Positions 4,404-37,222 of a stretch of 58,258 bases of DNA are shown here, piece by piece; the first letter of the stretch is position 1, and each line of letters starts with the position of its first letter. The position numbers and the translations under genes are program-made. The notes below the pieces were generated by a model. That model did no database searches. It was not told the DNA's origin and was given only the letters and a program-made list of their open reading frames with translations. The DNA is from Ruditapes philippinarum (Eukaryota), in assembly GCF_026571515.1 (NCBI RefSeq), contig NW_026856310.1, positions 1 through 58,258 on the forward strand. The letters run 5' to 3'.

Positions 4404-7400
4404 ATGGCGACTGGAGGAGGTCTTTTGGGAGCAGGAGTACACATACATGGGGGAGCACCTCGTGGGACAGCGCCTGTCGGAGCCCCTGCTGGAGTATCTT
4501 TTGACCTCGAGAAGAAAGAGGCTTATTACTTACGTATGCATCTGCTGATAGTAAACGAGGCAACCGCTTTGTTAAGGACACGGTTTGACCTGGCTGTACC
4601 GTCAAATCAACTTCATAGGACGTTACAAAATTCTATGAAAACCTTACTCTATGCAAAAGATAAATATCTTAATAAAACGCAATGGGATTTTTTATTTCCG
4701 AAAAACAAGCCACCGTCTTCGGACACCTTCGACGTTACCCTCCTAGTTTATCTCCTCAGAAACATCTGTAGACTTAAGTCGAAATGGTGGGTCGAATCTG
4801 ACAACAGCAAGATTCCTGACATTGTAGTTACTATGGATGCTGACATTGTTCGGTTGAGGAACTTAAGGAATGATGTAATTATATTACTGCTTCTTGATAT
4901 GAATTTAATGTAACTTGTAAATTTTTGTATTCAGTAATTTTGAAAGATACAAATTTAACATCATATCAACATTTAGATATTCAAACGTGTTAGCAAATCT
5001 GATTCAAAGCTACAATTTACATTAATGAATGACAGTTGCATTTGGAAAACGTCTGTTACCAGTCAAAATAACTTAACCTTGATACTATGTACAGATCAGA
5101 CAAAATATTACGCAAAATAACCCAAATGGTACTGTAAATAATATCTTATCAATGTTCTCCCTCTACTTTGTACTTATTTAAATCTTTAAAACAATTGAAT
5201 AGCTGCTGCACAAACCCGTTGCTTCATTAGAGCCGGCAGAATTTGAAGACATGTGGGACCTAGCAGAAAAGGTACGTTTGTATATAAACTGTTGACTTGA
5301 GTTAAACAATCATTTTAATTGATGGATGATACATCTAGACAGCTGACATATTGTTGTTCTATTCTTTTTTCAGCGGATGAATATTGTTATACTTATAACT
5401 TCACTAATGATAACGGTAAAGAACGCAATTCATTCATAAAAGGCGCGCGGCAATGACGTCTATTAAAGCATGCGAGTTGTCTAACATTGCGGGGGGTAAC
5501 ACAGTTTATTTTCTAGCACGGTTGAAAACGGTTTATACTCTTGTCTCATATGCAAGAATAGCATATAATTTACCAAAACTAATTTGGTAATTAACATACG
5601 GTTTGTTTCCAATGCTGTAAATGTACAGAAGGATTTACGTTCAAATGATGTCTGTCGTACCAATTTAAGTCTGATAATACTTTTAACTAATTTTTTACAA
5701 AAAGTAATAAAATCAAACGCTGACATTATTTTGCTTACTTTTGAAGTACCCAATAACATTTTCATCTTTTTGATAGACGCAAGTGTATAGATTTTTTTTC
5801 TTAAATTTGGAAATTACTCTCACTTGCATTTAGCATGAATAGCGCCGTCTTGAAAACCGTATTTAATATCTTAACCAACAACATAAACCAGCGACTAATT
5901 TCTAGTAACTGGGCAGTCGATCTGTCGTTTTTACTGTGAAGTTGTAACCTCTAATCAGAAGCGCCTTTCTCTGTTTATTGATCTTACTGTGACAGCTACG
6001 AAAAGGTAGATCTTGGTTTCTTTATATTCAGGCAATGCTTCGACTTGCTGCAAAGTTAAACATACAAGATCAAAAGCAGAAAATTGATGATTTGAAAACC
6101 AGTCAACTGGATTTAGTTACCGATGGAATGAGAAGTATAAGAGGTAAGATAGGAGATTCTAAGGTTAAGAGTGTTTAAACCTGTAGAACTATGTATAATT
6201 GGCTGCATACATTTTACTTTAATTAAATTTCATACTGAAATTAATTTCAAACTGTCATTGGATTTAATAAGTTCATAATATAATTAGAGAAGCACAACTA
6301 TCGAGAGGAAATGGTTTATAAATTATTCTTGTGTTCTGGAAACTGCAATTAACTTTTTTTATTATTTTTTTTACAGCAAATACAGAATTATTTCTTCAAG
6401 ACTATCTTGACGATCTTCAATATGTAGAAACTGCTGCCTACCAGAAAGCAATATCAATTCTTAGAGATAAACACATGGTAATACTAACTGGGCATCCAGG
6501 GGAAGGTAAAACTACTATGGCTGCAAGACTTGCCTTACACGTAAGTCAGTCCCCACGTAACTGCCTTAATCTTGTAGCGCCATCTGATTGGAGAAAAATC
6601 GATTTGTTATTAAAGCTTTTTGATACAATAATCATAGATGACATATTTGGTGCTGGAGCCTTGGATCAAAAGTTGGTCGGTGATTGGCGAAATCATCTGA
6701 ATGAAATAGAGAGAGCAGCAAAGAAAAAAGCTGTGAGAGTGATAATAACGTCCAGGCATTACATTTATGAGGAATCTAAAGAAGAGCTTGGCTCTGTGCC
6801 AATGTTCACGGACGATAATAAAGCTCTTCTGCTGCTTACATCTTCCGATCTTTCACCCGACGAGAAAACCAAAATTCTTAAGATGCAAGCGGAAAAAAAT
6901 GAACAAATTCTGGAAGACAAAACAATACATGAATGTGTTGAAGCTTCTAAAGGGCCGACAGAAGAAGTAAAAGATTTTCTGTTCGGATTCCCAGAATGTG
7001 CATCTATGTTTGTCAGAAACAAAACCATGCTCGACAAAGGTGCATCGTTTTTTAAGAAACCAGCCCAGTTCTTTAAAACATACTTAGAAAATTTGTATAG
7101 AGGCAAAGAACAAGAAAAGTTTTTAGCACTTGTAGCTGTATGGGCCAGTGATGATAAAAAAGTATCACGAAAAGAGTTGAAGAATACGGAAAGTGCATCA
7201 AACCATGTCAAGAAGGTAGCAAAAATATTTGGCTATAATGTCAGCCGAGACTTCCTTTACAAAATGCGATTGTCATTAGAGTCTCATGTGGGAGGATATC
7301 TTGTTTTTATAGGGGCAACTAAAGAGTATACTTTCAGTCATAATGTCATCGCAGATATGGTTGGTTTGGTCATTGGTAAAAAGGAACCAGAAAAATCAAT

Positions 7401-13377: not shown

Positions 13378-14625
13378 ATGGCGGCAGGACGAAAAATTAA
13401 TGTGGAATCTGTGGATAGACCAGAGCTTGCTAAGCACGATAGCAAAAACTTGGATCTAGCATTTGCAATGGATTGTACTGGAAGCATGGGGTCGTATATT
13501 GAAGAGGCTAAAAACAATATTCGTAGAATTGTAGAAGAAATAGTTTCAAGTGAAAAGAGTGACGTAAGACTTGCTCTCGTAGAATACCGTGATCATCCGC
13601 CGCAAGATTCGACGTTCGTAACACGTTGTCATGATTTTACCTCTTCGCCTAAAACAATGAAAGGTTGGTTGAGTGAATCGTCGGCTTCCGGTGGCGGAGA
13701 TATGCCTGAAGCCGTGGCTGATGCTCTTCATGATCTCCTTAAACTAAACTGGAGAGAGGATGCTACAAAAATATGTGTATGCATTTCTGACGCACCTCCA
13801 CATGGGCTGGGATGCGGTGGTGATGGATTCCCCGACGGCTGTCCGGACGGGATAGATCCAATGGTTGTCGCTCATCAGCTTGCAGAAAAAGGTATCACTA
13901 TATATATGGCAGGATGTGAGCCAAGTATATCACCATATAAGGACTTTTTCATGGCTGTGGCTTATATAACAGGTGGACAATACGTTCCTATGCGAAAAGC
14001 ACAGGTTCTTTCAAAGGTGATTATTGGTGGGGCGCAAGAAGAACTTTCATTAAATCAATTAATGGCGGAAGTTGATGCTGAAGTTCAAAATAGAGTACAA
14101 GCTGGAGAAGACGTAAACGAGGATGAAGTGTCAGATTTACTTCATCAACGATGGGTGTCAAGAGGGGAATGTGTAGCACAACTACAAATGAACAACATGG
14201 AACTTGGTGGTGTTTATTCATCGCCAGAGGCAAAGAGCTATTCTAAATTCAAATCTTTTTCTGACGTACGGACAAATTTCAAGGCGAAACCGACAAGTTT
14301 CAATGGTAGACGTGAACCAGAATGTTATACAAGGAGTGCAGCTCCGAAACCGAGTGGAGGCGGTATTTTAAACTGGATGGGAAGTTGGTTTGGTGGTTCT
14401 TCTGCAGGTGACGCTCCAATGGGGGCTGCATCAAGCCCCGCTCCTCCACCTGCCCTGCTCTCGGATGACTTAATGCCTCGAGCAATGGCAAGCTCACATG
14501 ATATGCCCTTTGAAGATGAGTATAACACTGTACGAACAGAAGTAACTAAAGCTCAGTCATCAAGGCTAGTGAAAAAGGTGATGGCGAAACACAAAATAGA
14601 GACAACAAACATAATCCATAAATAA
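13378..14625 (+). CDS. intronless VWA-domain protein (vwkA/alpha-kinase-associated VWA type, no kinase domain), paralog 1, 415 aa
   Basis: MIDAS-type motif DLAFAMDCTGSM plus YRDHPPQD, GGGDMPEAV and ISDAPPHG. First ATG at 13378 (the track start at 13369 is TTG). No signal peptide. TATA box at 13203. Confidence 0.88.
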   Translation: MAAGRKINVESVDRPELAKHDSKNLDLAFAMDCTGSMGSYIEEAKNNIRRIVEEIVSSEKSDVRLALVEYRDHPPQDSTFVTRCHDFTSSPKTMKGWLSESSASGGGDMPEAVADALHDLLKLNWREDATKICVCISDAPPHGLGCGGDGFPDGCPDGIDPMVVAHQLAEKGITIYMAGCEPSISPYKDFFMAVAYITGGQYVPMRKAQVLSKVIIGGAQEELSLNQLMAEVDAEVQNRVQAGEDVNEDEVSDLLHQRWVSRGECVAQLQMNNMELGGVYSSPEAKSYSKFKSFSDVRTNFKAKPTSFNGRREPECYTRSAAPKPSGGGILNWMGSWFGGSSAGDAPMGAASSPAPPPALLSDDLMPRAMASSHDMPFEDEYNTVRTEVTKAQSSRLVKKVMAKHKIETTNIIHK

Positions 14626-15781
14626 AGCCCAACATGGCAAAATGAAAATATTGCAGGCTCGGTTTGATTGAGCCTGTACATGGACGGTTCTGGAAAGTGC
14701 AAGTAACGGCCACGGCCCCTAGCACCGGCTTAAGCAGAATTCAACAAAGTTTAAATTTAAAATACAAGTTCGCATTTATATGTTGTTTCATGTTTTAGGA
14801 TATATCCCTATTGCTCGAATTCTCGGGATGGAATAATTAAAACGAATGGATACGCAATAAGTTGTTCATAGTAATTTTATTTTGTTTAAGATAAAAGAAT
14901 AAAGTTGATTCTGTACATTTTATTTACATTATTCGAACGTACGATTTGCTGCATAAGCATAATTGAAATAAATATCTATTCAGGCCAATTTTAATCAAGC
15001 ATATAAACTTATACAAACATTGTAAGATGAATATTTCGATTTCACCATATATGTATACTGCTACATCATTTCGTCATAATAGCTAACTTACTTGAGAAAA
15101 TGTTATACCAATACCAATTTACATCCATTACATTTGAACTGTATGAATATAAATTTTATGTATACAAGTTTATGTTGGATAAAATCTATACAATGTATTT
15201 AAATGTAACGTATAAAAATGTATAACATTGTACTTGTATATAGGAATGTCATTGATATGATGTTGAAAGTAAATTCTTCCTTGACTTTTTACAATCTCAA
15301 ATTAAATATATCTTAAATATATTTAATTACTTGTATTATGTACAGAATATTGTTTTGTCAGTCTCATAAACACTTTGCACATGTATGTACTACAGTTTGT
15401 ATTTATTTGTTACTTATTATTTAATTAATTGTTGATATTGTTATAGAATATGTTTAAATAACAAAAAAAATATGAATAAAATATTACAGTATAACTGATT
15501 TTATTCATTTATTTTAGAATATACTTATAAAATATCAGTCCTCATTTTGTATAAATGAGTATTTAACTTTAAATCGAAGTAAAGGACATGCTATAATGGA
15601 GGGTATAAGATTGTAAGAACTTCTATCAGCCTTACTACACATACTATATATAGACTGACTACGTCATTCAGCTGTTCTAATTATACCTTACCTATATATT
15701 ATAATATATATTATATAGAAGCATGATTTATTAAACACTGTGACTGAATAAATTGAGTGTCTGCTTTACAGGTAATGTTAA

Positions 15782-16145
15782 AGATCCTGTAACACAATTT
15801 TTATGGTTTTATGGTTTTATATCATAAATATGATGCTCAAATTAAGATTTATCAATACTGTACGTTCCAAAAAGCATTATTTATAATGATATTACCCAAT
15901 TAAGCATTTCATGTAAATAAAGAGAGGTAATAAGAAATTTATTTTCTATGAAGTCTAAGTCAATTTTTTTTCAATAAGAAATGAATGAATATATTTTAAT
16001 GATTAAATATCATGTTGACAAATATTTGCAGTACATATTTTACATATCATTCGATGTTTGAAAATTGTTTTAGAAGCATAATTATATACATATATAAAAT
16101 TTCAATAAAGTTTGGATACAACCTTAAATACAACATAAAGGATCT
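15782..16145. mobile_element. possible TTAA-flanked (Kolobok-like) MITE
   Basis: TTAA-AGATCCT ... AGGATCT-TTAA; the TIR is only 7 bp. Confidence 0.35.
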
Positions 16146-16174
16146 TTAAGGCATACCTGAAATAGAAAACAAAT

Positions 16175-16383
16175 ATGAGCCGCGTCACGACAAAACCAAC
16201 ATAGTGCGTTTGCGACCAGCATGGATCCAGACCAGGATCCATGCTGTTCGCTTCCAGACTCTATAACAAGTAAAGAAACTGATAGCGAACAGCATGGATG
16301 CTGATCAGACTGCGCGGATGCGCAGGCTGGTCTGGATCCATGCTGGTCGCAAACCCATTATGTTGGTTTTGTCGTGACGCGGC
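16175..16383. mobile_element. fold-back MITE, copy 1 of 3
   Basis: Long terminal inverted arms GCCGCGTCACGACAAAACCAACAT..TTTGCGACCAGCATGGATCCAGACCAG; homologous to the copies at 20412 and 26039. Confidence 0.85.
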
Positions 16384-18100
16384 AAGTATATTTTAGCATT
16401 TTGTACCCCATGACGTGTACTCTCAAGAGCGGATGGACCCTCATTAAGCCTAGAATGCCTACATTTAAAATATCTTGATACCCGACTGTATAAATAATGT
16501 ATTACACGAAAAGCCTTCAAGACGCCTTGTAAACATGGAGGGACAATTTTCAATAGCTGCGAATCTCCTATAAACACTGTAACAACGGGAAAGCATACAG
16601 TATTTCTATTGGAATTTAAATATTGATTTATTGATCGATCATTCACTTATCATATTTGTTAACGACTGAATTGTGTATAATATTTACCAAAGATATATCA
16701 AAGATATTTATTTAGAATGCCGCATTGTAAATAAGGTGTTACAATCTGTATGTCTTAAAATGTTACTTTCTGTAAATGAAGTTATTATTTGCAACTGGGC
16801 GCCTCGATTTGCTCGTCATTATAAGGAACAAAACTGTTTCTTTTTCTCCGTTTCATGGTTATTTATTTAACTAAATATAATAGAATCACCCTTGATCACA
16901 GGACTGACTTGTATTTCGGTGTAGTGTAAATATTCAAGTTAATTAACATGCCATTAGACACGGTGTGGTTTTCTTTTTCGGTTGTGTGCGTGCGTGTGTG
17001 CGAGTGTGTGTGTTATTTCTTCTCTCTCTCTCTAACGTTTCTAAGTGAATGTTAAATTAATTTCTTTACATCGAATAGTTATGCGCGTTAGTTTTGCTTG
17101 TTCGTTTACTTTTAATTCTTTTTCATAATAATTTAATATAATGCTAATTATTTCAATTGGAATCGCTTCTCTACTGAAAAAATTAAGTTCTCGGTCATAT
17201 ATATAATTATTATATGGCGCCAGGCATATTTTCTTCAGAGGTCCTATGCCATCGATTTCGCTTTCCAATAAACAGTCGAAGCTACAATTAATCGAATTGT
17301 AATTTGGCCTCGGCATACATGCAAAGGCACGAATTGCCGAAACACACATACTATTATAGCGTGTTAGAAAAGCATTTTAAGATATACTATTATCTAAAAT
17401 GTAAAAATGTATAAGAATTAACCACCAGATCTTTTGTTTTGATTGTAAGAAAGATAATCATGCATAACGCATAATCGTTTCATGACAATGAGTTGCGTAT
17501 GTTGTGTATATATCTTAAACATTATACTAATTAACAGTTTCAGTTTTTATTAAACCAATTACGGCATATAATTTGCAATTGGTTATAACAAACAGAAAAA
17601 TAGCAGTCAAAAATCACTAATATCACAATAAACATGATAAAAGAATACAATAGATAAACAAAAAAAGGAGATCATATTGTTCATATTCAAATGGGAACGG
17701 AGAATGAAGATCGAAGTATCAATTATCTAAATTTTCACATAATGTTCTTACAAAATAAAGATGATCTTAGTAGAATCTTTTTATCACAACTATTCATTAA
17801 TCTGTCAAGTTTAAAAATACGAAAAATTATGATAAAGCTGTTAAACTATAGGTAATGTGTAAACTATTAACCTTGTCATGTTATCTTGTGTAAATATTGG
17901 ATACAATAGGCTATATGTATTACTAAACATTTTATTGTGAACATAGCGTATCACATTACCGATTTGGATATCGATTTCCTCGGCTGTGTAATGAGAAGTT
18001 CAGACTGCTGTAAATATTGTCTGCCGACAGGATACAATTTAACATATTAAATACCATCAATAAATTAAGTACAAGGTGGATTAAAGTTCGCATCAACGCG

Positions 18101-18179
18101 CTATTTTTAGAGAAAAACATAATAGCTATTTTTAGAAAACGCGTCATATTTACATGCGCATAAGCTATTCTATAAATAG
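18101..18179 (+). promoter_or_regulatory. candidate promoter of VWA paralog 2: three MEF2-consensus sites CTA(W)4TAG, the last overlapping a TATA box, plus GCGTCA
   Basis: CTATTTTTAG at 18101 and 18126, GCGTCA at 18141, CTATAAATAG at 18170, about 90 nt before the ATG. Confidence 0.5.
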
Positions 18180-18267
18180 TCTGGTATAGAGGACGACGGC
18201 AATATTTAGTAAACAAACTTATTACTTTGTGAAATTATTATATATTCAAGTAAATTATCTGTTCGTG

Positions 18268-19470
18268 ATGGAAACTAGACGGAAGCGGAATAACGACAGT
18301 GTGTTTAAACAAACTCTTGATACCACTCCTGTTAAAAAATTGAAGAAAATGTCGGACAAAATAGATCAAATGAAAGAAGTAATAATTGAAAACGAAACTA
18401 AATGTTTGGATTTGGCTTTTGCAATGGATTGTACAGGAAGTATGCAGTCATATATTAATGAAGCAAGGAATAATATCTGTAAGATCGTAGAGGAAATCGT
18501 GGCCAGTGAAAATATAGACGTGAGGTTGGCACTCGTTGAATACCGTGATCATCCCCCGGAAGATACTTCATTCGTTACTCGTTGCCATGATTTTACAAAG
18601 TCTTCAAAAACAATGAAAGGCTGGTTAAGTACCTGCTCTGCCACAGGCGGAGGAGACACGCCTGAAGCTGTAGCTGATGCTCTTCATGATCTACTTAAAC
18701 TAAGCTGGAGGGAGGATTCTACAAAAATTTGTGTTTGTATTTCAGATGCTCCACCGCACGGACTTGGTTGTACATCAGATGGTTTTCCGGAAGGGTGTCC
18801 GAATGGAATTGACCCTGTGGTTGTATCAAACCAGCTGGCTGCAGAAGGAATAACATTATATGTTGCAGGCTGTGAACCAGCTATTATTCCATACAAAGAT
18901 TTCTTTATGGCGATTGCACATATCACTGGTGGGCAATACGTTCCTATGCGAAAAGCGCAGGTCCTCTCAAAAGTGATTGTCTGCGGAGCACAAGAGGAAT
19001 TGTCTTTAAACGATTTAATGGCAGAAGTAGATGCTGAAGTTAGAGCAAGAATGCAAGCTGGTGAAGAAATCAACGATCATGCAGTTTCTGGTTTCCTTCA
19101 CAACAAATGGACAGAGCGTGGGCAGCAGGCAGTTCAGCTTCAAATGGATAATGCTGAACTCAATAGTGTACAAGACTCTCCTGAAGCAAAAAAGTATTCT
19201 CAAATGAAAACTCTTGCTGAAATCAAAAAGGTTTTCAAAGAAAAACCTGGCAGGTATGCATCATTTGGAAGCCATGCTTGCGGGAGAGGAGCATCTCTTT
19301 TTTGTAAGCCCGTCTCCGGAAGTACTGGTTTCGGTGCTGGTGGAGATTACAGTACAGGAACTTGTTTTGGAGCAGCATGTTCGAGCACATTTGGCTCAGT
19401 TGCAACTGGAGTCACGTTTGCACAGTCCTCGAGATTAGTACAGAAAGCTATTGCGAAAAACAAGAAATAA
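18268..19470 (+). CDS. intronless VWA-domain protein, paralog 2, 400 aa
   Basis: Same motifs (DLAFAMDCTGSM, YRDHPPED, GGGDTPEAV, ISDAPPHG), long blocks identical to paralog 1 (ITGGQYVPMRKAQVLSKVI) and shared C-terminal AQSSRLVxK. First ATG at 18268 (the track start at 18229 is GTG). Confidence 0.88.
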   Translation: METRRKRNNDSVFKQTLDTTPVKKLKKMSDKIDQMKEVIIENETKCLDLAFAMDCTGSMQSYINEARNNICKIVEEIVASENIDVRLALVEYRDHPPEDTSFVTRCHDFTKSSKTMKGWLSTCSATGGGDTPEAVADALHDLLKLSWREDSTKICVCISDAPPHGLGCTSDGFPEGCPNGIDPVVVSNQLAAEGITLYVAGCEPAIIPYKDFFMAIAHITGGQYVPMRKAQVLSKVIVCGAQEELSLNDLMAEVDAEVRARMQAGEEINDHAVSGFLHNKWTERGQQAVQLQMDNAELNSVQDSPEAKKYSQMKTLAEIKKVFKEKPGRYASFGSHACGRGASLFCKPVSGSTGFGAGGDYSTGTCFGAACSSTFGSVATGVTFAQSSRLVQKAIAKNKK

Positions 19471-20030: not shown

Positions 20031-20411
20031 TATTTATAGTGGTAGCTGGATAGTCCCTGAATATTTATAGTGGTATGTTCTTTATGGCGTAGGTATGATC
20101 TTTATGGTGGTATGTTCTTTAAGGTGTCTGTAGTTACATATTTCTTTATATCAGACTTTGATCAAATTATTTTTTTTTCTAGCTTTATACCATCATGTGC
20201 TAACAAGGGCCACAGTCTGGCGGGGTCAGCGCTCGACTTTTCCTCACAAGAGGAACAATATACACCTACAAAACTTTTTTTGGTAATAAATTTCATATCT
20301 GACCTGGATGGGTCAAGGTCAATAAAAAGGTCAAAAGCTTATTTGAATTAATCATCATGTCGGTATTGTCATATGTGTTTTTGTCCAAGAATGAATCAAT
20401 TTCATAAATAA

Positions 20412-23501: not shown

Positions 23502-26500
23502 TCAATGTCTAAAGTAATAATCCACCGCTGTAGAGAATACTGCAAAACCTGCAGCCCCAAATGCAGCCGCTTTTAATCCAGCTGAAATGCAAGAAAGAAA
23601 GTTTAAACTATTTTACACAAACACTATTTACATAAACTTAAAGTATAAATAAAAATTTATGTACATATTATTAATGTTTAAATAATACTGTGTTTTATAT
23701 GAGTGTGTAATACTGTCAAATGTTTTTGTATATTAAATATTACTAATAACTTTTGATACAAAATAACTTTCAAACAATGTATCTTACATATAAAAATTAA
23801 ATGCATACATTGAAATTACTAAATTGTTAGACAGTTTGTCAAGATATTATTATTTAATATTTTATCCTAATTAATGGATCAGACATTCTGTGTTAAAACT
23901 TGTTCACATAAATCTAACTAATATTCTTCATTTATATAAATGTTTCTATGTTTTGTATACATATTACGTAGTCAATAAACTCACAGATTTAACTAGAAAT
24001 GTGTCCATAGGACACAGGTGCCCCCACACTCCACCAATTTGTCAATCTTATGTCTCTAGGTCAAATAATTTTTTTGGCTACATGTGCCCAAGTTGAAAAC
24101 TAAAAATCTTTTATTAAGTAAAGGGCAAATACTACAAATACTGAATAAATCCACAAGAAAACCCCAAGGTGCATAATTACACATGCTGACCAACATTCTT
24201 GTAAACTTTCAGGCCTACAGGTCATACACTTTTCGGGTTACAGGCAACAAAAGTTAAATATTGTAAATTTTTACTAAGTCAAGGACAATAACTCTAAAAG
24301 TACTAAAAATATCCACATGAAAATACCCAGGTGCACAACTACACATGCTGAGCAACATTCCTGTAAGGTTTCATGACTATAGGTCAAATACTTTTTTAGT
24401 TGCGTGCGACACAAGTTGAAAATTGGAAATTTTTACTAATTAAGGGCAATAATTCTAAAAATACTAAATATATCCACACTAAAATACACAGGTGCACAAC
24501 TTCACATGCTGAGCAACATTCTTGTAAGGTTTCATGACTCTAGGTCAAATATTTTTTGAGTTACGTGCAACACAAGTTGAAAATTGTAAATTTTTACTAA
24601 GTCAAGAGCAATAACTCTAAAAATACTAAAAATATCCACATGAAAATACCCAGGTGCAATTTAAACTATACATGCTCATCAACATTTCTGAAAGGTTCCA
24701 TGACTCTAGGTCAATTACTTTTTAAGCTATGTGCGACACAAATAGGGAACGGATGGACGGATGGATGGACGGACGTACAAGGGTAAATCTAAATACCCCC
24801 CTATTGTGGGGGCACAAAAAAAACATTGCTGTTATAATATTTTAGTGAGGAGGGAACCTATATATTTCCATAAGTCATGATTATTTAAACCCCAAACTTC
24901 CTCACAAGTCACTCATGTTTATGACTTACATCACTGGAATTTCACAATTTATTTCATACATGTTTATGACTTAGTCACATTGAATGTCACAATTTATTTC
25001 ATACATGTTAACTACATATGTGACATTAAATGTCACAACCTTAATCACACATGTACACTACAGGTCTCATTGAATGTCACACCGTATATCACACATGTTA
25101 ACCACATGTCATGTTGAATGTCACAACTTAAATTACACATGTTTACTACCTGTCTCATTGAATGTCACAAATTTTTACTACAAATGTACATTTCACATTG
25201 AATGTCACAACTGGAATCACAAGTTTATTAAATATGACAATGAACACTTCATTATCATGACTTTTCAAAAGAGCTATTTAACAAAATGGGTGGATGAAGA
25301 TAAGAAATTCTGATGCCTCCAGTCTAAGGGAAATTACTGTTTTTCTTTTATTTCATTTACAAATACTAAAACTTTATTCATCTATATGTGTTTGACTGCA
25401 TGACTGCCAGTAAAATAAGCAAGTCAATTGTCTGTCTTGTTTATATTTGATTATGAAAGTGGAGTTATAATCAGAAATGCAAGAATTGTGTTTATGTAAT
25501 AATATACAACGATTAAAGTGCTATACTCAAAAGACTGCACTTAGCAATCTTATAATTATTATTTCTCAATAATCTGGTTATGTGATATACATTATTTCTC
25601 CTAAAATTAACAATTATTGGTTCAAAACTGAAAGAAATTATTCATTTTTGTTTTTATTACAAGTAATATTTTGTGTACTATACTCAAAACAAGTTTTATT
25701 AATGTCCATTTTGTGAGATATCCATTTATTGAAAACACAATGAATGGGCTATCTTTTTTTTCGAATGATAGTATTAGTTCATATTTAATACAGGAAAGTT
25801 TCCATTATTAAATAGGTTTGATCAAGTCAAGTGTTGTATTATCTGTTTTTTTACACCAGTTTTCAACACATTTTGACATTTTTAGTCTTATCTACATGTA
25901 ATCGGCTTGTCCACATAACCAATTTTACCTGGTTACTTTACCGGTAATAACCCTTTTCTCTGCAAATTGCAAAAGAGAGACCTCCAATCTCAAATGATTT
26001 CTGAATCAGCAATTAGAGACAAATGATCATTAGACTAAATGAGCCGTGCCATGACAAAACCAACGTAATGCATTTGCGACCAGCATAGATCCATACCAGC
26101 CTGCGCATCCGCGCAGTCTGATCAGGATTCATGCTGTTCGTTATCAGTTTTGCTACTTGTTATAGGGTTGATAAGCGAACAGCATGGATCCTTATCAGAC
26201 TGTGGGGATGCGCAGGCTGGCCTGGGTCCATGCTGGTCGCAAACGCATAATGTTGGTTTTGTCATGACACGGCTTAAATGTCCGCAATCAAAAGTCACAG
26301 ATGAATTTTTCACTGAGGATCAAACAAGCAGTCTTAATTCCCAGTTAAACATGAAAGATAGAAAGAGTTAAACGGTACCTCTCAAGCCTAGAGCACCGCC
26401 CACTATAGCTCCTGATATCGTACCATTTGACAAGGGACTTTTCCCACGATACTGGAAAAAAAAAACAAAGAAAATTTATCATTCTATATTATAGCATATT

Positions 26501-29500
26501 GATAATATACAAGGTCATTTTTTTGCTTTTACAATGTCTATTAAAATCATTCATTTATTTGTTTGTTTTGTTTGGTTTTACAGTGAAAGAAATTCGGATT
26601 TAAATCCACTAGGCTGGTCGGACTACTAGATTGGAATATTCACTAACCCAAAAGACATTTCACTAGCACGATTCATTTGTTCAAAACAGTTGTTTATATT
26701 GCCTCTGAAAATACAGTAGCCTGGTCAGGCTTGTTACTGACAAAAGTTGGTAGCCTGAGGAGAAATTTAGTGGTCAGGGGCTATCAGACTCATGCTAATT
26801 TCAAACACTGTTTTATAGTGCACTAACATAAATTAAGCATCTATTTGTTTGATTTACATGTATTTGGTTTTATAGTTCACAAATTAGTTAACATAGTACT
26901 GAAACAGAAAAGATGATTTTGGATATATACAAGGTCATTTTGCTTTTACAATGCCTATGAAAATAATTCAAAACATGTAAAAAGACCTTTTTGTTTGTTT
27001 GATTTTATGGTGTACCAATACCAATTACCAATATGGTGTTACAAACTAAGAGATGCATAGACTCCAGTAACACAAACCCATTTAGTCTGACTCCTCTTGC
27101 AATCATGCAGGGATAAACCCTGGCTGCATTTCTGATGCCTAAACCCTTAGAGGCAACTCCTCAGTCACAAGGGTGAAAAAGATCCATAAAGGTTACAATT
27201 AATACATTGTACTGAAAAGAAACTTAACAATATGGTCGTTCATTACAGTATCACACATACAATCTTTGTGACATTGAAATAACTGACTAACCAAATTAAC
27301 ACTGTTTTCTTAACCTGCTGGAGAGAGACATGATTAATTAGCCAAGCAGTTTGACAAAGCCCTATAATTTAAAGTGACATAACTTTTAATATGGATATCC
27401 TTATAATTGTTAACAGACAATTCTAAGATTGCTTGCGTCTATACTAGTGGTAATGCTAAGATTTCCTTTTCTGTTCCAGCATAGTAAGGTCTGAATTATA
27501 ACAAGTCAGCAAGTGCATTTGTACTGATGAGTAAAAGACATTCACTCTTACAGTTTCAAGAATGCATTCAGTGCCAGCAAACATAAATCCAATAGTTCCA
27601 AAGTTTCTTCCATATGATGAGCATCTCACTTTCATTTCTTTCAATACCGCACGAGTTGATGGTGTCTGATCTGGTGTCGTAGTCGTGTAAGTTGACATCG
27701 GGTCCATACCCACCGTGAATAAACCAATTGCACCACCCAGAGCAAAGCCTGTCATTAAAAAAAACATATTTGTAATATATAGAATGATATTATTTTTTTG
27801 AACTAGTTCAAAAATTTTAGTAATGAACTTACACCAATTTAATATTTTATTTATCGCACAAAAAATAAAGACTGTTTAAAGTGATAAAGAAAGATTTTTC
27901 AATGACGCGCCTTTAGTATAACACTAACATTTAGCGAGTCTTATCACTACAATCATATAATGCAAATGAAGCCTCATCAAAATATTAAATGTACAGCCAT
28001 GCAATACCATTTTTACCGAGTTGCTAAATCATGGGTATGTTATAAACAATATTGTCATAACAAACAAATTGGTAACAACACCGTATATTTTGTATCAATT
28101 AACCTTTATTGCCTTAATCACCATCATGAGGTGTTTAAAGCATGTGACACCGACTGTTACTTATTCAGAACATGCAAGGATAGAAAATTCCACTTGTCCG
28201 CCCGTAATTTATTTACGAATAGAGATAGATGCAGGAGAGTACAAAATGGTAGAATGCTCGTCCTGCCAAAGCAGAAATTTGCCAATGCAATAGGAAGCTA
28301 GAATTCCCATAATCAGTTTGTTTACTTTTAACGATGGAAAAACTGAAACAAAGCTTGTGTTTTAGGTTATGTATAAATTGCGCACTTTACAAATTGCTTA
28401 AAGGATATGGGTGTAACTTGAACGTGCCCGACAATGCTCTATAAAGTGCGCGATTTATACATAACCTCAAACACAATCTTTGTTTCCTGTTTTGGTTTGT
28501 AAAATTTGTGTAAACAAACTTATTATGAAAATTTCTATTGGTCAATTGCATTGGCAGGGTTCTATTGCATCAGTGAGATTCATTTTGAAAATTGTGCCCA
28601 AAAAAGAGGACGAGTAGCATACCATGCAGGACAAGTAGAAATTTGAAGCCACTCATCATGCTGCTCGAGCTGTTCTATGAAAATGTTTCAATCCCTGAAC
28701 ATGTCGACCCCCAACTTTTTTTGTCTTTTTGTGTTTTCAACAGAAAAGGTGTGATTTTCAATATATTTCTGCTGAAGGGACCCAACATCAGGTTTGAGAG
28801 ATCCGAGGTAGAACAATATATACTATATAGGAATTTTACCAGGACTTGGCAGTGTGCTTGAGCTATAGAAGGTATTCAAGAAATCCGGGTCTGAGGCCAT
28901 CCTTAAAAAAATGTTTGTTTGCAGTAACCCGACCCAGAATTTTCAAGGTAGGTAGTTGGGTCGATTTTTTTTTTTGAACTGTTCTCCCAAATAAGCATGG
29001 AATTTTAAAATGCTGGACAATATATGCTTTGATAATCTGGTAACAATTAATAAATTGATAACTGAATTCTAATGTAATAAGACCTACATTTTATTTCTTC
29101 TATTAACGTTTAAAAGAACGAAAACAAAGCACAAGGCATAATTTTCCGATTCAAAAAAAAAATTCATCCAGACCATGAAAAAAAATTTTGAGTAGGGGCA
29201 ATTTTTGTGAGTCGATCGCGTTACTGCAAATGAACATTTTTTTAAGGATGGCCTGAGTGAACGAAGTTTAACTGTATACCCTTTTTTCTTTCTTTTTCTA
29301 AAAAGTGTCAGTCCACAAGAAAGCATGATATATTGCTGTGCAGAGAAAATAAATACTGCCTACCAGTTTTATTCAAAAACTCTTTTTGGCTTGCTCTGTT
29401 AACCGTTAAACACTACCTTATTGAATGTTGGTTAAAGAAAGTTTGAATATCGTTCGTTGTTATCTCCAAATGGCGAGAAAAAAAGAGCATTTAGTTGCAG

Positions 29501-32500
29501 TTGAATAACATCAATGTAAATAGTTTTAATTATTTATTCCATGCGCTGAATTAACAAAAAATGATTTAATAATTCATCTTTCATATAAATAAAACAACAA
29601 ACATAAGCAGAAAAACAATGTCGGTATAATTAACTTAGACTATTTATTATTAATCATAAATAATATGAAATTAGGCAAAGCTTATGAATGGGGAAGTCGT
29701 TAAAAAATCCTTTTATTTCCGTTTTAAAGGTATCATGCACCGCTTCCATTTTCACTTGGAACACTCAACGATTATTATTTATCCGAAAAGTTGCGACTGT
29801 TCTGTTATGATTATTCATTCCATGTGCTTAGATTTAATTTATATAATTAATCTGTCATACAAATAAAACAACAAATCATATTTATTATTTAATCATAAAT
29901 ATAACTTTGCATAACCATATACTTAGAATGTACTTTGTATAATGGGTCATGAAACTTTGACACTTTTATCATGATGACAACACTCAGCATGCCCATTCAC
30001 GCACTACAGTGCGTAATTCATGCACAAAATTCTAGATGCAAGCATAAAACTTGTAAGCAGGGGGTACATGAACGCAAAGTAAAATCGTCAGAATGAATGT
30101 TTGGGATAGCCTAATATGCATATCAACTATCAAAGTATTTTGAGTTCACCAATGATCAGAAAAAAGTTAGTCACTTGATTTTTTATCAACTACCTTCAAT
30201 TGTGAGCTTTAGGTATGTCATATGAAATGAAAAAATAAACATTTGAGATTTTGAAATAAATTAACATAATTTTGGAGTTACAAAATTTTGGTAATAACAA
30301 GTAATAATCGTATGGACTAAATAGAAAAACAGTTTTTGTAATGGCTGTTATATTGCTACCTTAAGTGATGAGATTGTGTCTGTGTTATTGGGTAGTAATA
30401 CTTAGTGAAACAACTGTTCATTAATATCATGTTGACTAAAATGTTCTTACAAACAAAAACATGTTTAAACTTATGTGTACTCCCAGATTTTGAAATGTAC
30501 CCCTAATTTTCAATGACAAGGGGAACATGTAACCCTACATTTAAAATTGAGTGGGCATGCTGAACACATACATAAATAAAATTTCCTTCATAATAATATT
30601 CTGTTGTTTTTTTTCTCTTTTCTTTTTTTGACAAAACAGACGGAGCACCTTATAAACATACAAGGACAAATGAGGGTTGTTGGTTCAAGAACCTTCATTT
30701 GTAATTCTTCAAATGTAAAATCCAGTTGTTTGCATGTGTGTTCCACCCGTTTGATCTCATTGTTGATGTACTTCAAGCGTAAATACCAGCTTACAATGTA
30801 CATGTCATGACGGTCTCATCTTTCGGACCTGTGTGATTTCTTACTTTTGGGCTTTAAAACATTAACTAGCGGTTAATTGGGGATCTGTAAATAGTAAATT
30901 GTAATAGAAAAATATATTGTGCATTGATTCCATGCAAAAATCCGACGATATTACCGCCCGGTGAAAAATTTTAACACAGATAACCGGCATACCCATAATT
31001 TTCGTACCTGAATGTTGCATACCTTGTCTATAATAATATAACAGTGAAAAAAAAAATTTTTTTTAATTTTTTTTTTTTAATATACAGTGAACTCGACAGT
31101 TCCGGGTCAGTAACGAAATTACCGAAGCGTGACTCTTTGAAACGAAAGTTGAGAGAAACTAAACTGCTTTAATTGTGCAACAAATATTTCCTCCTTACTA
31201 TGATATAATTCAACAATTCTAATAATTTGGTAAACTTATTTTTCAGAGTATTCATCTGCCCGCTGTATATTTGACAGTTTCGGGTCGCACTTGCTATTTC
31301 CGGGTCACGTGATAAAATGTTTATATTTGTCTTCGGGGGGCATCTCAAACGATGTAATATTCAACAAAACAGCTGTCATAATAACAACACTTTTATTGAG
31401 CATTTTTTGTTCAATATAAAAATAAAATGTAAATGAAAGAGGTAGAATATATCACAGGCAAAGAAAGAACAAAAATCACCTGCAATTACTTATTGCACAT
31501 TAAAACATAAAATATTGCATATAAAAACATGGAAAGAAAAAATAGACTGTAAGACATGTATTAAACCATGAGTGAAAAAATGAAAAATCACAGTGAGTTA
31601 ACATGGAATTAGTAATATCTAGGGTCACAATATGTTGTACATTAAATCACTGTCTACATACAAAGGCTGCTACTTATAGATCACCAACATTTCAGAGCAC
31701 TCTTTAACTGAAGTATTTATTTCTCTTAACCGAGAGATAACCACATTAATGTTTTGTTTTGCAGATATAAAATATGTTGCAGGAATAACCACTCCCCCTC
31801 CTTCTTCATTTTGTGAAGGCCATGGTGGGAAACTAGGTATTGGTTCTCCTGTTGCCTCGGCAAATATATTACCACCTTCATCTAATACAGAACGAAACAA
31901 CCCTGCCAAAGACCTAGGAACATGCCCTACAGGCAGATCAGCAATATCAAATAATTTCAAAAAACGTTTAGCATCTGTTACCATTGAGTGCATATTTTCA
32001 TTGAACTGGTCTAATGGTGGTACCCACACCAAACAAGCATTAATGTCTTTAATATTTGTGTATTCTCTATGTAATAGAAAGAGCATCGACACAATATAAA
32101 ACCCCACAAAAAATTAACCAATGTTGAATGAACTAGAATCTGAATAGGATATTTCCATCGCTATCCCTTTCTCTGTCGTCATAATATGTAAACCCCGGAC
32201 AAAATGAACCAATCAATGGGCATGCTCTGGAGTGAGGGTAACTAATACCTGCACTCCAGTTAACGCACTGTGCATGTATATGTATACGATTTAACTCTGT
32301 CACATTTTCAACAGAAAGGTCCCCAAACTATGATACAACAATTAACTCTTTAGCGCATTGGAGGTACTGTATATGGTGGCCGAATCTTGTAAGCATGGTA
32401 CCACTTGATAACTGATTTCTGTATCTCAATGACTGAAATATCTTGTCTATCATCATCATTACTGATACAAACACTCTCTGAACATCTTGTCTGTTGATTG

Positions 32501-35500
32501 TGTTCAACCGAATCGTTAATGGGCTGAAATAAAAAAGTAATACAGTGCTATACTATTTTTTCTACTAAGAGCTGTCACAATCATTTTACAAATGCTGCAC
32601 TTTGCATCATCGAAGTTATAACTATATTATTTTTTATAATCAAATTAAAGTAAATACACAGCTGAGATAAAGAGTAACATGCTGACAGATGGACAAGCTA
32701 GTGTAAGTATACTCAGAGTGCAACTACTTTATTTCCAATTACAGAACATACAGAATATATATTATAATCTTGTGAAAAACTTTATCTCACTTAAGATATA
32801 TGTTTTAAAACAAATATTAACATCTTCAGTGTACAATCAGGACACTGGAATGGTTCATCTTCTCCAACAGGGTCTGCAATGTGAACAACAGGTATGTTCC
32901 GTTTTCTCTTCGGAGCCATATTCCTAAAAAAATATCAATTTAATATTTATTTAAACAGTAAATATAAAATGAAACCAGACCCCCCCCCCAAAGAAATTCA
33001 AACAAACAACATCAATAAGTAAAACCCTACAAAAATCACTTGAAAAACACACACAAAAATACATTTTGTTATCTGAGTACTGTAACAATATCAAAAACAT
33101 ACAACTTTTCAAGACTCTGGTTGAAACCATTGTAACAGTTCTATAAAGGGGGCACCATCCACATTTAAAGCATATCAAAATATATGTAAACACAAGTTTA
33201 AATGGATCAGTATCAAGGATTTACCTTAGATATATCAATTTATACATTTAATTACTCTTAAAAAGTTACCAAAATCGTTTTTGAAAGACATTCCTAATTT
33301 TGAGAATTTCCCTCTGTCTGACCCGAAATTGGCATATGTAAACTAGGTCATATTGTCTGCTAGTTTTTCATAAAGACGTTTGACAAAAGCGATGAAAGTT
33401 TTTAATCTTGTTCAGTGGTAAATAATCTTCAAATAATTGTGCAAAACATACCTGTATTACTTAAATTATTGATACAAATAACAGTTTTTGCGGTGGCATG
33501 TAAACAAATAATATCTGCTTTCACTTTAGTGGGAAATGATGCAGTCAAGCGTTTCGTGATTGCGACATCCATTCTTCAAATGACAACATCCGAAATCAAC
33601 GTGAAAGTAGCTAAGTTATTAGTCAATATGACTCAGTGTTGCATCTAGGCCGCGCGATTGCGCGATTTGCGCATTTTTTATGCAGATCGCGCATTTTATT
33701 GAAGTCAGTGCGCGCCAAGTCGCGCATCTGACAATCTTTTCAACTTAATTCAGTTTATCTTCATCGTATCTTTAACGCTTCAGCCATGTTTGTTTTCACT
33801 CGTGGTTATGACTAAAATACGTACTAAATCGCATGTAGCAGCCGACTAAGTCATCTCGCGTGTGTTTTGTAGTATTCGTCAATATTTTATTTTTTTACTT
33901 CCGTTTTTGAGCGGACGATAGCTGTCAAAAATGCCTGAATGTAAAATAAATGAACTCTATTCGGTATGTCATATTGTAAGGTCAATGTATGTCCCCCACA
34001 TCTTTTTCAAATCCCCCACATTTTTCAATTGAGTGGGGGACAATCCCCCATAATTTTGAAATTCTAGATGCAACACTGTATGACTTGATTATAAAATTAA
34101 TGAACAAGAGCCACCGCCGGGCGGGGGCAACGCTCGACTTTTTACTTTTTCTAAACGCAAACATAGAAAGGTTTGAACATATATTAACGTTTCCTTTTTA
34201 TAAATTTAGTTTGTCTGTCTTGTCACATTAGTTTTCTTTATATATTTTGTATATATATGAATAGAAACATTAAGCATATTTCTAAAAATAGCAACAGTAC
34301 GCAATTTCTTAAAATAGCAACATGACGCAATTTCTCAATATAGAAAAAATGACGCAATTTCTAAAAATACAAAAAATGACATAATTTCTAAAAATAAAAA
34401 AGTGATGCAATTTCTAAAAATAGCAACAATGATGCAATTTCTAAAAATAGAAAAATTGACGCAATTTCTAAAAATAGAAAAAATGAAGCAATTTCTAAAA
34501 AAAGAAAAAAATGACGCAATTTCTAGATATACTAAAATAGAAATTATGACGCAATATCTAAAAATAGAAATTATGACGCAATTTCTAAAAGTAGAAAAAA
34601 TGACGCAATTTCTAAAAATAGCACCAATGACGCAATTTCTAAAAATAGAAATTATGACGCAATTTCTAAAAATAGAAATTATGACGCAATTTCTAAAAAA
34701 TGACGCAATTTCTAAAAATAGCACCAATGACGCAATTTCTAAAAATAGAAAAAATGACGCAATTTCTAAAAATAGAAATTATGACGCAATTTCTAAAAAT
34801 AGAAAAAATGACGCAATTTCTAAAAATAGCACCAATGACGCAATTTCTAAAAATAGAAATTATGACGCAATTTCTAAAAATAGAAAAAATGACGCAATTT
34901 CTAAAAATAGCAACAATGACGCAATTTCTAAAAATAGAAAAATTGACGCAATTTCTAAAAATAGAAAAAATGAAGCAATTTCTAAAAAAAGAAAAAAATG
35001 ACGCAATTTCTAGATATACTAAAATAGAAATTATGACGCAATATCTAAAAATAGAAATTATGACGCAATTTCTAAAAGTAGAAAAAATGACGCAATTTCT
35101 AAAAATAGCACCAATGACGCAATTTCTAAAAATAGAAATTATGACGCAATTTCTAAAAATAGAAATTATGACGCAATTTCTAAAAAATGACGCAATTTCT
35201 AAAAATAGCACCAATGACGCAATTTCTAAAAATAGAAAAAATGACGCAATTTCTAAAAATAGAAATTATGACGCAATTTCTAAAAATAGAAAAAATGACG
35301 CAATTTCTAAAAATAGCACCAATGACGCAATTTCTAAAAATAGAAATTATGACGCAATTTCTAAAAATAGAAAAAATGACGCAATTTCTAAAAATAGAAA
35401 AAATGACAATTATGACGCAATTTCTAAAAAAAGAAATTATGACACAATTTCTAAAAATAGAAAAAATGATGCAATCTCTAAAAATACTAAAAATAGAAAT

Positions 35501-37222
35501 TATGACGCAATATCTAAAAATAGAAATAAATGATGCAATTTCTAAAAATAGAAATTATGATGCAATTTCTAAAAATAGAAAAAATGATGCAATCTCTAAA
35601 AATAGAAACAATGACGCATTTCTATAAAAAAAAACCAAAAAAACAATGACCCAATTTCTCTAAATAGAAACAATGACGCAATTCTATAAATAGAAACAAT
35701 GACGCAATTCTATAAATAGAAACAATGACACAATTTTAGTTATTGTTGTTGTTGTTGTAAATATATATATATAGACACACACACACCAATAAATATTTAA
35801 ATATGGTCATTTACTGCACAAATCTGAGAAAATTCAGTAATTTAACCTTCAAGGTCAAGGTCATTTAAGAGCCCAAGCAAAGTTGGGTTTGATAAACAAC
35901 AAGGTCTGGTCCTTAAGAATGTTCTCTAATAATATGAAGTTGATCCCTTCAATAATAGCAAAGTTACAGTCAGTGACCGCCAAAACAATGAAAATTTCAA
36001 TAATTTGACCTTCAAAGACAATGTCATTAATGTGTGAAGGTCAAGGTCTTCCGGTATATCTTTAACAGTAATCTTTGAAGATTATTATGTTCAAGTTTCA
36101 GGACAATCCATTCAAAAATAACAAACTTACAGCCAATAAAAGCCAAAAAAATGAAAATTTCAATAATTTGACCTTCAAAGTCAAGGTCATTTATGAGTGA
36201 AGGTCAAGGTCTGGCTGGTTATTTTTAAGGGATATCCTTAAAGATTATTATGTTCAAGTTTGAAGACAATCCATTCAAAAATAACAAAGTTACAGCCAAT
36301 AACAGCATGAACAAGCAAAAATTGGACTTTTAACCTTGAAGGTCAAGGTCATTTATGGATGAAGGTCAAGGTTAGTGTGGTCTACTGAAAGGTCTTGTCC
36401 CAAGGGTTGTTGTGGCCAAGTATGAAGACAATACACAAAGAAATAAAAAAGTTATGATCCAGGTACAAGTTTTCGGACGGCAACGGCAACGGCAACGGCA
36501 ACGCCGACCTGACTGTAGCAATACCTCTATTTTTTTTTCAAAAAAAAAAGTCGAGCTAAAAACTAAATCATTTCCAAATAATAAACATATTTTTCTGAAT
36601 GTGACCCGGAATTGTCGACGACCCGGAACTGTCGAGTTCACTGTATTGATATTTTATTGTATAAATAACAAGGTCAAACACATTTTAGGTCAAATCAATG
36701 CCACTAGCACCTGTGTGGCTAGCCGGTTCCTAAGAATAATTGTTGAGGTGTTTTGATAGAAAAAGAAACCTGAGCATAAAATACAAAACAACACATTAAA
36801 AAGGAAAAATAAAAATGAACAGACTTCTTTTTTATCTGACTGGGAAAGTCCTCATGATCATCCATAGGCTTTACCTTCTTTCAAAATATCAGTAAGAACT
36901 TGTTAGATCTCTTAAGGATTTCATAAATCATTTATCAATATAAGTTTTATTATAACTGTAAACTAAAATGCAGACAATTACCCAGCACACCGCTTGCAAC
37001 AGCTTTAAATGCACAACTTTCGAAAGCAGCGGAGATCATTTGCTCCTGCTTGCTTCGAGCAGCTGACCCATACGCTGACGGTAGGAAAACATTAGTCTTT
37101 AACTTTTTCTCGCCTATCACATGGTTTAAAATAAGATTAAAAGTTTCAAGATCAGACGTTTGTGGTGTCAATAATGTGTCTTTAGTAACAGCCTCCGGTG
37201 GCTGTCTCATGGGCGCCGCCAT
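23502..37222 (-). CDS. TIMM22: mitochondrial import inner membrane translocase subunit Tim22; exons 37222-36982, 27748-27552, 26451-26379, 23581-23502 (196 aa)
   Basis: All junctions are GT-AG and in phase (241+197+73+80 nt). Spliced product reads FESCAFKAVASGVLG|FALGGAIGLF..YGRNFGTIGFMFAGTECILET|YRGKSPLSNGTISGAIVGGALGLR|AGLKAAAFGAAGFAVFSTAVDYYFRH, a Tim17/22/23-family sequence with the Tim22 cysteines and C-terminus. Confidence 0.96.
23991..24822 (+). mobile_element. HINE/pearl-like element in TIMM22 intron 3
   Basis: Inverted GTGCCCCCAC / GTGGGGGCAC, four roughly 161-bp core repeats and a (GGAY)n microsatellite before the 3' end. Confidence 0.8.
24912..25225. repeat. degenerate minisatellite, roughly 48-bp unit (core TTGAATGTCACAA)
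   Basis: Core recurs about seven times at near-regular spacing. Confidence 0.75.
26039..26277. mobile_element. fold-back MITE, copy 3 of 3 (most complete)
   Basis: Inverted arms of about 100 bp around a short spacer, same family as copies 1 and 2. Confidence 0.85.
26581..26810. mobile_element. 230-bp MITE with CAGTG ends
   Basis: Imperfect TIR CAGTGAAAGAAATT / AATTTCAAACACTG with TTTTA on both flanks. Confidence 0.5.
28180..28650. repeat. long imperfect palindrome (fold-back element), boundaries approximate
   Basis: AGGTTATGTATAAATTGCGCACTTTA pairs with TAAAGTGCGCGATTTATACATAACCT around about 28410; outer arms GCTCGTCCT/AGGACGAG and GCCAATGCAAT/ATTGCATTGGC. Confidence 0.65.
28895..29253. 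mobile_element. PIF/Harbinger-like MITE
   Basis: TIR GGCCATCCTTAAAAAAATGTT extending imperfectly to about 35 bp; 3-bp TGA duplicated on both flanks. Confidence 0.75.
31670..32919 (-). pseudogene. decayed HIRAN-like domain gene carried by the transposon
   Basis: Pieces: MAPKRKRN..FQCPDC (from 32919); exon from 32523 with SVIKWYHAYKIRPP; then REYTNIKDINACLV..VGHVPRSLAGLFRSVLDEGG..GGGVVIPATY (ORF 31670-32107). In-frame TAA at 32350-32352 and a 271-bp insertion interrupt the domain. Confidence 0.6.
32070..32340. mobile_element. 271-bp insertion with TGT...ACA ends (possible solo LTR) splitting the HIRAN-like domain
   Basis: Removing about 272 nt restores RVN-REYTN in frame. Ends are TGTAATAG / ACAACA. 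No clean 4-6 bp TSD. Confidence 0.35.
33634..34078. mobile_element. 445-bp MITE with hAT-like ends and a 7-bp TSD
   Basis: Perfect 15-bp TIR CAGTGTTGCATCTAG; TATGACT directly repeated at 33627-33633 and 34079-34085. Confidence 0.8.
34103..36562 (+). mobile_element. Helentron-associated (HINE/pearl-like) non-autonomous element containing a minisatellite array
   Basis: AACAAGAG start; subterminal inverted repeat GCTCGACT (34132) / AGTCGAGC (36549); TGACCTTCAAGGTCAAGGTCA-type core repeats at about 35840-36375; (GGCAAC)n at 36479-36502; A-rich end. Confidence 0.7.
34278..35737. repeat. 27-bp minisatellite (ATGACGCAATTTCTAAAAATAGAAAWW), about 50 copies, with a 487-bp higher-order duplication
   Basis: Directly visible tandem array. 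The variant TAGATATACTAAAATAG recurs 487 bp apart (about 34524 and 35011). Confidence 0.95.

Follow-up and report, generated by a model that had tools for sequence, protein, structure and literature searches.

The window analysed here, a 58,258-nucleotide stretch from the clam Ruditapes philippinarum (NCBI RefSeq assembly GCF_026571515.1, contig NW_026856310.1, positions 1-58,258), carries three consecutive genes on the + strand: one for a receptor combining a HEPN domain, a STAND NTPase and ankyrin repeats, and two for proteins that contain the VWA (von Willebrand factor A) domain, VWA1 and VWA2. An initial annotation of the sequence had placed this trio within 15 kb and had suggested that the receptor and the VWA proteins may act together in immunity; the layout and the Pfam domains were confirmed, with a span of 15,067 bases. 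No further ATG-started open reading frame (ORF) of at least 150 amino acids was found inside this span, in which small exons may remain. The features of the locus are as follows.

4404..4874, + strand: receptor exon 1, encoding a Gly-rich leader and most of HEPN_DZIP3 and ending within the RxxxxH motif; joint 4874>5203 present in run X16
5203..5271, + strand: receptor exon 2, supplying the His that completes the HEPN motif (exon structure, paralogues, X16 joint)
6032..6143, + strand: receptor exon 3, encoding the end of HEPN and a linker helix (exon structure, paralogues, X16 joint)
6377..8982, + strand: receptor exon 4, encoding nSTAND3 with its Walker A and B motifs, followed by helical and winged-helix domains, one mixed domain and about ten ankyrin repeats; early stop in the window allele
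8968..8969, + strand: site of a 14-nt deletion causing a frameshift in the window's receptor allele; other runs have the 14 nt
8983..9232, + strand: acidic C-terminal tail, translated where the 14 nt are retained (a protein of ~1173 amino acids by arithmetic) and untranslated in the window allele
13378-14625, + strand: VWA1, VwkA-like, 415 amino acids; intronless coding sequence with a DxTxS metal-ion-dependent adhesion site (MIDAS), a helical extension, a Gly/Ser/Pro linker and a conserved C-terminal strand-helix
18268-19470, + strand: VWA2, its paralogue, 400 amino acids; intronless coding sequence with a basic N-terminal extension

Gene models of the receptor and the VWA proteins

The four receptor exons, joined across GT-AG introns, encode a product of 1085 amino acids identical to the R. 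philippinarum record XP_060591245. All three splice joints were present in contigs of run X16 (presumed RNA), and five paralogues repeat the exon layout. In the Pfam search, HEPN_DZIP3 was found in ORF 4404-4910 (E 1e-19), and nSTAND3 (E 1e-31; 110 bits, for a cut-off of 27) and Ank_2 (E 5e-47) in ORF 6322-8979. The HEPN RxxxxH motif is split by the first intron, and the Walker A motif lies at residue 256. The predicted model contains HEPN, P-loop, helical, winged-helix-like and ankyrin parts (mean predicted local distance difference test (pLDDT) 84.7, predicted template modelling score 0.53), the winged helix being assigned from the order of elements in this model; ankyrin proteins were the sole matches in a fold search. 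The receptor has three sequence features of its class, a HEPN domain with RxxxxH, a STAND NTPase with Walker A and B motifs and a C-terminal repeat sensor. It is not a canonical nucleotide-binding leucine-rich repeat receptor (NLR) of the NACHT plus leucine-rich repeat type, as NACHT scored 15 bits, below its cut-off of 26.7, and no leucine-rich repeat was present among the 25 families listed. Intact motifs, predicted fold and published architecture agree in supporting the initial assignment of the first gene to a HEPN_DZIP3-STAND-repeat (NLR-like) receptor.

One feature overlooked in the initial annotation is that the window carries a frameshifted receptor allele. By comparison with its paralogues, this allele is short of 14 bases at 8968, with a resulting shift of frame and the loss of an acidic tail of ~90 residues; the frameshift comes after all the catalytic and sensor parts. 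The 14 bases are present in contigs of runs X9, X15, X16 and X18, and a contig of DNA run X1 crosses the site without them, so the deletion is real DNA and the site is polymorphic. Run X1 is possibly the assembly's own source, and the deletion carriers seen may be a single individual. The tail-less allele provides natural material for asking what the acidic tail does.

VWA_4 was matched by both VWA1 (E 4e-12) and VWA2 (E 3e-12). The two genes are intronless paralogues, as first annotated, each consisting of a single open frame, with 60% identity over 391 columns; to judge from their divergence (dN 0.18, dS saturated) they are old duplicates, and each paired with its own Mercenaria orthologue in the tree. 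In the predicted structure the VWA domain is extended by helices and followed by a disordered linker, and the final strand and helix are conserved, with a pLDDT of ~90 at residues 381-400, and its closest folds are integrin beta I domains (Foldseek, E 2e-9, 16% identity). Two points of the initial description require amendment. The acidic residues of a MIDAS-type domain are present, but the motif reads DxTxS instead of DxSxS in 121 of 124 relatives. Likewise, the conserved VWA core was borne out, but the supposedly divergent tails hold a low-complexity linker followed by a strand-helix motif conserved in 102/124 relatives. The basic N-terminal extension of VWA2 is common to its Mercenaria orthologue and to a Mya VWA protein embedded in a receptor array (see below); this extension resembles a nuclear localization signal.

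A hydrophobic leader is missing from all three proteins (highest nine-residue hydropathy values 1.5, 1.3 and -0.2), consistent with the lack of signal peptides noted at the outset; two VWA paralogues with a leader reach 2.9 and 2.4 in this comparison. VWA paralogues with hydrophobic N-terminal leaders are encoded at C12809:19477-21030 and 28703-30199, and part of this otherwise intracellular family may be secreted.

VWA1, VWA2 and the exons of the receptor are all covered by contigs of run X15 (presumed RNA), and a bin between the VWA genes has zero depth. Coverage in run X18 (RNA on record) was confined to parts of receptor exon 4, and run X24 (raw RNA reads, ~6 in 100 sampled) gave almost no depth on all three genes and was uninformative. 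Runs X22 and X23, labelled RNA-seq, were rejected as expression data: they contain GATC junctions, strand-switching joints and even depth over introns, and look like proximity-ligation DNA libraries.

Relatives of the two families

The catalytic motifs of the receptor are maintained among its relatives. Read by eye, Walker A was present in all 34 aligned receptor rows and the Walker B DD in 33 of the 34, and RNxxxH was intact in 20/21 rows that include the HEPN part. The receptor copies cluster by species in the tree, as expected if a single ancestral gene had expanded repeatedly. The mean pairwise ratio of nonsynonymous to synonymous substitution (dN/dS; 15 pairs of six copies in the R. philippinarum genome, two frameshifted copies being left out) was 0.32 for the NTPase, 0.34 and 0.43 for two further regions and 0.36 for the ankyrin region. 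On these ratios, the receptor is under purifying selection throughout, and diversifying selection on the ankyrin sensor was not seen in the mean pairwise values. The frameshifts in other receptor copies may be assembly errors. The Mercenaria receptor model P0205 (XP_053389026) has a long extra tail, in its last 450 residues, that resembles a trypsin-like peptidase by eye; the tail had no Pfam match at E 0.001, and the model is possibly a fused gene.

This receptor architecture has already been published; no account of its neighbourhood with a VWA lineage was found in the literature searched. The available text of PMC3710099 describes fusions of DZIP3-like HEPN with ankyrin, NACHT and death-fold domains, expanded in oyster and Nematostella, and the available passages of PMC8260672 describe cnidarian HEPN-NACHT expansions of 17-83 proteins, corals included. 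Like the DZIP3/hRUL138-like HEPN-STAND proteins, the clam receptor has an N-terminal HEPN_DZIP3 domain with a conserved motif, a STAND NTPase, ankyrin repeats and lineage-specific expansion, but it bears nSTAND3 where the published proteins have NACHT. The term "vWA" is absent from the main text of PMC3710099, and the passages of PMC8260672 likewise make no reference to a VWA neighbour. According to the available part of bioRxiv 2025.07.08.663546, nSTAND3 is the NTPase of the bacterial Avs5 anti-phage receptors (Sir2-nSTAND3-TPR). Avs5 and the clam receptor each unite an effector, nSTAND3 and a repeat sensor in one chain, the clam protein, known here from its sequence, having HEPN instead of Sir2 and ankyrin instead of TPR repeats and being encoded by a spliced animal gene.

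The VWA family gave 702 matches at E 1e-20 or better, of which the best 120 were examined. Those listed came from molluscs, rotifers, hemichordates, annelids and brachiopods, and further relatives were found in Basidiomycota (fungi), Thorarchaeota and cyanobacteria. The sources of the family's records use the names "VWKA-like protein" and "alpha-protein kinase vwkA", and its Atlas neighbours include alpha-kinase fusions. Unlike the VwkA alpha-kinases, VWA1 and VWA2 are stand-alone proteins, the Pfam search of their ORFs returning no kinase family, and one paralogue lineage is tied to a receptor locus.

The initial annotation had pointed to prokaryotic conflict systems in which VWA proteins accompany NTPases, a parallel that does not hold here. 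In the available text of PMC7159879 and PMC8195603, such ternary systems have a MoxR AAA+ core with the vWA protein as co-chaperone, an inactive STAND part, and effectors attached to the vWA chain. The clam locus resembles them in having a MIDAS vWA gene near an NTPase gene in a defence context, but its STAND domain looks active from its motifs and itself bears the effector. The 13 ORFs of the window that were scanned include no MoxR gene, and all the long frames nearby are those of the receptor and VWA genes. The vWA conflict systems described in these sources rest on MoxR ATPases; they predict no STAND-VWA pair.

The surroundings of the prokaryotic relatives are different again. In a set of 80 loci (33 bacterial and 47 archaeal by record titles), 27, all bacterial, have a gene of ~490 codons, mostly just upstream of the VWA gene, the profile of which matches Ro60 (E 1.4e-4) and TROVE-domain proteins; a ThiF/E1-like gene is present at 11/80 loci. 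NLR-like neighbours were found at 3/80 loci, all cyanobacterial and each of a different build: one combines NB-ARC and TPR, another is a WD40 protein bearing a NACHT-associated domain, and the third joins a P-loop to HEAT repeats. The clam receptor profile gave one weak, unrelated match in the 1412 ORFs of these loci. In a metagenome scan for clam contigs with both genes, none of 80 loci, most of them too short, matched the receptor in tblastn searches, one containing an unrelated ankyrin ORF. Eight of these metagenome loci (L178, L185, L187, L189, L199, L202, L204 and L211) are probably fungal; in them a Miro/Gem1-like GTPase gene is followed directly downstream by the VWA gene, with EF_assoc_1 found in all three neighbours tested. 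The presence of such a housekeeping neighbour in probable fungi indicates that the VWA family does keep passive neighbours. TIM22, the neighbour of the VWA genes in venerid clams, and the Miro/Gem1-like genes are both mitochondrial genes, probably by coincidence.

The recurring bacterial neighbourhood (L077:5480-8720 and 26 other loci), with a Ro60/TROVE-like gene, a VWA gene and often a ThiF/E1-like gene, was found in cyanobacteria, Chloroflexota, Planctomycetota and others, and one TROVE-like copy (L131:4992-7982) contains an intein with a LAGLIDADG domain. This TROVE-VWA-ThiF neighbourhood may already have been described, in a 2016 paper on RNA-repair operons.

Linkage in Ruditapes philippinarum and other clams

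Within the R. philippinarum genome, no VWA match was found near any of the seven other receptor copies (six contigs, 7-70 kb analysed on each), six of which have at least 14 kb of downstream sequence, the receptor-to-VWA1 distance in the window being 4.4 kb. Genome-wide VWA searches listed none of the contigs bearing other receptors, one of which is 770 kb long (C1485); a clear distance separates the receptor copy on C1485 from every VWA gene listed. Conversely, a receptor match was found near none of eight other close VWA copies (six contigs, 28-71 kb analysed on each). There was no receptor-VWA fusion among 96 receptor sequences. The probability of an nSTAND3 candidate lying by chance within 20 kb of one of seven VWA loci is ~4%, on the basis of at least 194 first-look nSTAND3 candidates. 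The pair was moreover picked out post hoc, and one genome alone says little. A second haplotype of the locus (contig C11572) has TIM22 adjoining VWA2, after which the contig ends; its VWA2 sequence is full of homopolymer errors and was not read as a pseudogene.

The next gene beyond the trio served as a control.

23505..37222, - strand: TIM22, four exons, ends approximate; outside the trio, control for ordinary microsynteny

Linkage in other species was judged by accession order, as a proxy for gene coordinates. In Mercenaria, XP_053375337, 338, 339 and 340 correspond to TIM22, the VWA2 orthologue, the VWA1 orthologue and an orthologous receptor, the window order reversed. The chromosome concerned also holds a second, partial TIM22, so the doubling of the receptor and VWA1 in Mercenaria may be one segmental duplication. 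TIM22 is on a receptor-bearing chromosome in all four other clams (4/4) but is adjacent in the two venerids only; in Mactra and Dreissena the closest receptor listed is 400 and 418 accession numbers away, respectively. Since TIM22 is kept in Mercenaria, the venerid linkage amounts to ordinary microsynteny. Among the matches listed, Mactra has four receptors and one VWA protein and Dreissena four receptor-type proteins and three VWA proteins, with no chromosome common to the two families in either species; the linked VWA lineage was not seen in these genera among the best 120 of the 702 matches. In a second VWA lineage (support 97/96), the members from Mya, Mactra and Dreissena are on chromosomes for which no receptor was listed.

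The second-lineage Mercenaria protein P0018 is encoded on a chromosome of 121,110,697 bases that also carries a distant HEPN-nSTAND3-ankyrin clade (P0158, P0161, P0166, P0167, P0169, P0171 and P0202). The nearest locus number in this clade is 220 away, and adjacency is not indicated. Among unnamed proteins of the European Nucleotide Archive, where the receptors belong to a clade more distant than that of the window, incomplete lists compared by eye contained no source sequence above 100 kb common to the VWA and receptor families.

Origin and possible function of the neighbourhood

We consider a passive, historical linkage to be the best explanation, with a probability of about 0.6: an NLR-like receptor at an old locus, with VWA genes as passengers. 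The receptor likely acts alone as an NLR-like immune switch, the VWA genes being likely long-standing neighbours and not required partners. By extension from STAND and HEPN biology, the ankyrin repeats would bind a ligand, the NTPase would exchange nucleotide and the receptor would oligomerize, paired HEPN domains would form a composite RNase site and cut RNA, and this cleavage would stop translation or viral replication in the affected cell. The VWA proteins, from an old family found across eukaryotes, likely reside in the cytosol or nucleus and bind peptides in a metal-dependent manner. A VWA duplicate would have reached the receptor locus before the split between Venerida and Myida and would have duplicated again to give VWA1 and VWA2; the receptors would then have multiplied in each lineage, in tandem and by dispersal, usually without VWA genes. 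The lone receptors (7/7), the lone VWA copies (8/8) and the unlinked families of Mactra and Dreissena, among the matches listed, count against an obligate module. If the linkage is passive, the locus would still be a well-defined ancestral home of the clam receptor family.

Several observations weigh against this explanation. In Mya, a clam of another order (Myida) than Ruditapes and Mercenaria (Venerida), the VWA protein WAR03971 lies among seven receptor accessions spanning WAR03955-03979, the nearest of which is two away. The RefSeq annotation of Mya agrees, with receptor LOC128230442 and VWA LOC128230445 three apart. TIM22 is 690 accession numbers from the linked Mya VWA gene, and the loss of TIM22 from this neighbourhood makes Mya the one informative case of linkage. 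WAR03971 joined the VWA pair of the window in the core tree (support 88/79 with nine rows and 94/98 with 11 rows), and the grouping of the two Mya VWA lineages together was rejected (approximately unbiased test, p 5e-5; the group tested was named after a quick tree had been viewed, and a smaller, careful tree was then built). This placement implies that the neighbourhood is likely older than the Venerida-Myida split, which took place more than 200 million years ago. The linked VWA lineage has longer branches, with an end branch of 0.49 in Mya versus 0.13 for the unlinked copy, and one Mya receptor model includes a 16-residue VWA-like piece (pairwise E 4e-4), hinting at co-duplicated remnants. 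The counterexamples may also be weaker than they look. Four of the receptor contigs of R. philippinarum look like haplotypes of one tandem array and have flanks matching the first 4 kb of the window, so the lone receptor contigs may not be independent and may lie near the window, the fragmented assembly weakening the test. Linked copies could likewise be hidden in Mactra and Dreissena, as the linked Mya copy ranked 98th of the 120 matches listed.

The initial annotation had looked to linkage in related species, and accession order provides it in both Mercenaria and Mya. A neighbourhood conserved across these genera is likely real by this proxy, and no paper on receptor-VWA linkage was found in a search covering neither supplements nor most subscription papers; six locus identifiers also returned no papers.

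The strongest competing explanation, which we nevertheless find rather doubtful, is the functional pair initially proposed, in which the receptor would guard a VWA protein, or VWA2 would be a decoy or adaptor, and binding, cleavage or modification of the VWA protein by a pathogen would set off the HEPN RNase. Dispersed receptors could be served in trans by a single VWA locus, linkage keeping matched alleles together. Such pairing fits with linkage in three species of two orders, with the loss of TIM22 from the neighbourhood in Mya, Mactra and Dreissena, with the faster evolution of the linked VWA lineage, with the coverage of all three genes by run X15, and with the similarity of the ankyrin and NTPase dN/dS ratios, as little added variability suits a conserved host ligand. 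However, the control rests on one gene, and a single breakpoint between VWA2 and TIM22 would explain Mya. Partnerless copies in both families, the lack of fusions and prokaryotic VWA relatives that are not tied to STAND genes also argue against a pair. In the specific form of a two-part module older than the Venerida-Myida split, in which the nSTAND3-ankyrin receptor guards the VwkA-like protein and disturbance of the latter switches on the HEPN RNase, the proposal is unlikely. If true, it would provide a linked guard-guardee pair in an animal, involving a VWA family with bacterial relatives beside Ro60/TROVE-like RNA-binding genes. To our knowledge, the large HEPN-STAND-repeat families of bivalves have no identified trigger or target, and a VWA gene that has stayed next to receptors in two orders of clams offers a concrete candidate for the ligand. 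The clustered NLR-partner pairs of fungi (HET-S/NWD2) and plants (guard and decoy pairs) are similar in that a receptor and a second gene lie side by side across species, a likeness of gene position.

Shared regulation without contact, through one stress- or infection-responsive domain whose common enhancers keep the genes together, appears quite improbable. It would account for the common strand, short spacing, long persistence and joint coverage in run X15, but the one mollusc expression report found (available text of PMC9283884) places expression of a Mytilus gene called VwkA, possibly an orthologue of the clam VWA genes, in the larval shell field. It is very improbable that accession numbers depart from gene order and thereby exaggerate the linkage across species: the Mercenaria and Mya cases do depend on accessions and not on coordinates, and in Ruditapes the TIM22 and receptor numbers are consecutive (XP_060591244, 245) despite the VWA genes between them, but the four Mercenaria numbers match the window gene order exactly, the two Mya annotations concur, and within each species all records give one chromosome.

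The remainder of the window contains several other features. A 287-codon open frame at 44046-44909 (+ strand) had no Pfam match; its neighbours in the Atlas come from molluscs and cnidarians and belong to the fibrinogen/COLFI/GON clan, with scores of 0.90-0.92, a weak recognition. A broken RVT_1 reverse-transcriptase remnant of a retroelement lies at 49325-50661 (- strand). A short palindromic high-copy repeat, resembling a miniature inverted-repeat transposable element, occurs at 16173-16383, 20408-20584 and 26036-26299 and is present on most of the other contigs examined, and long tandem arrays are located at ~34250-35740.

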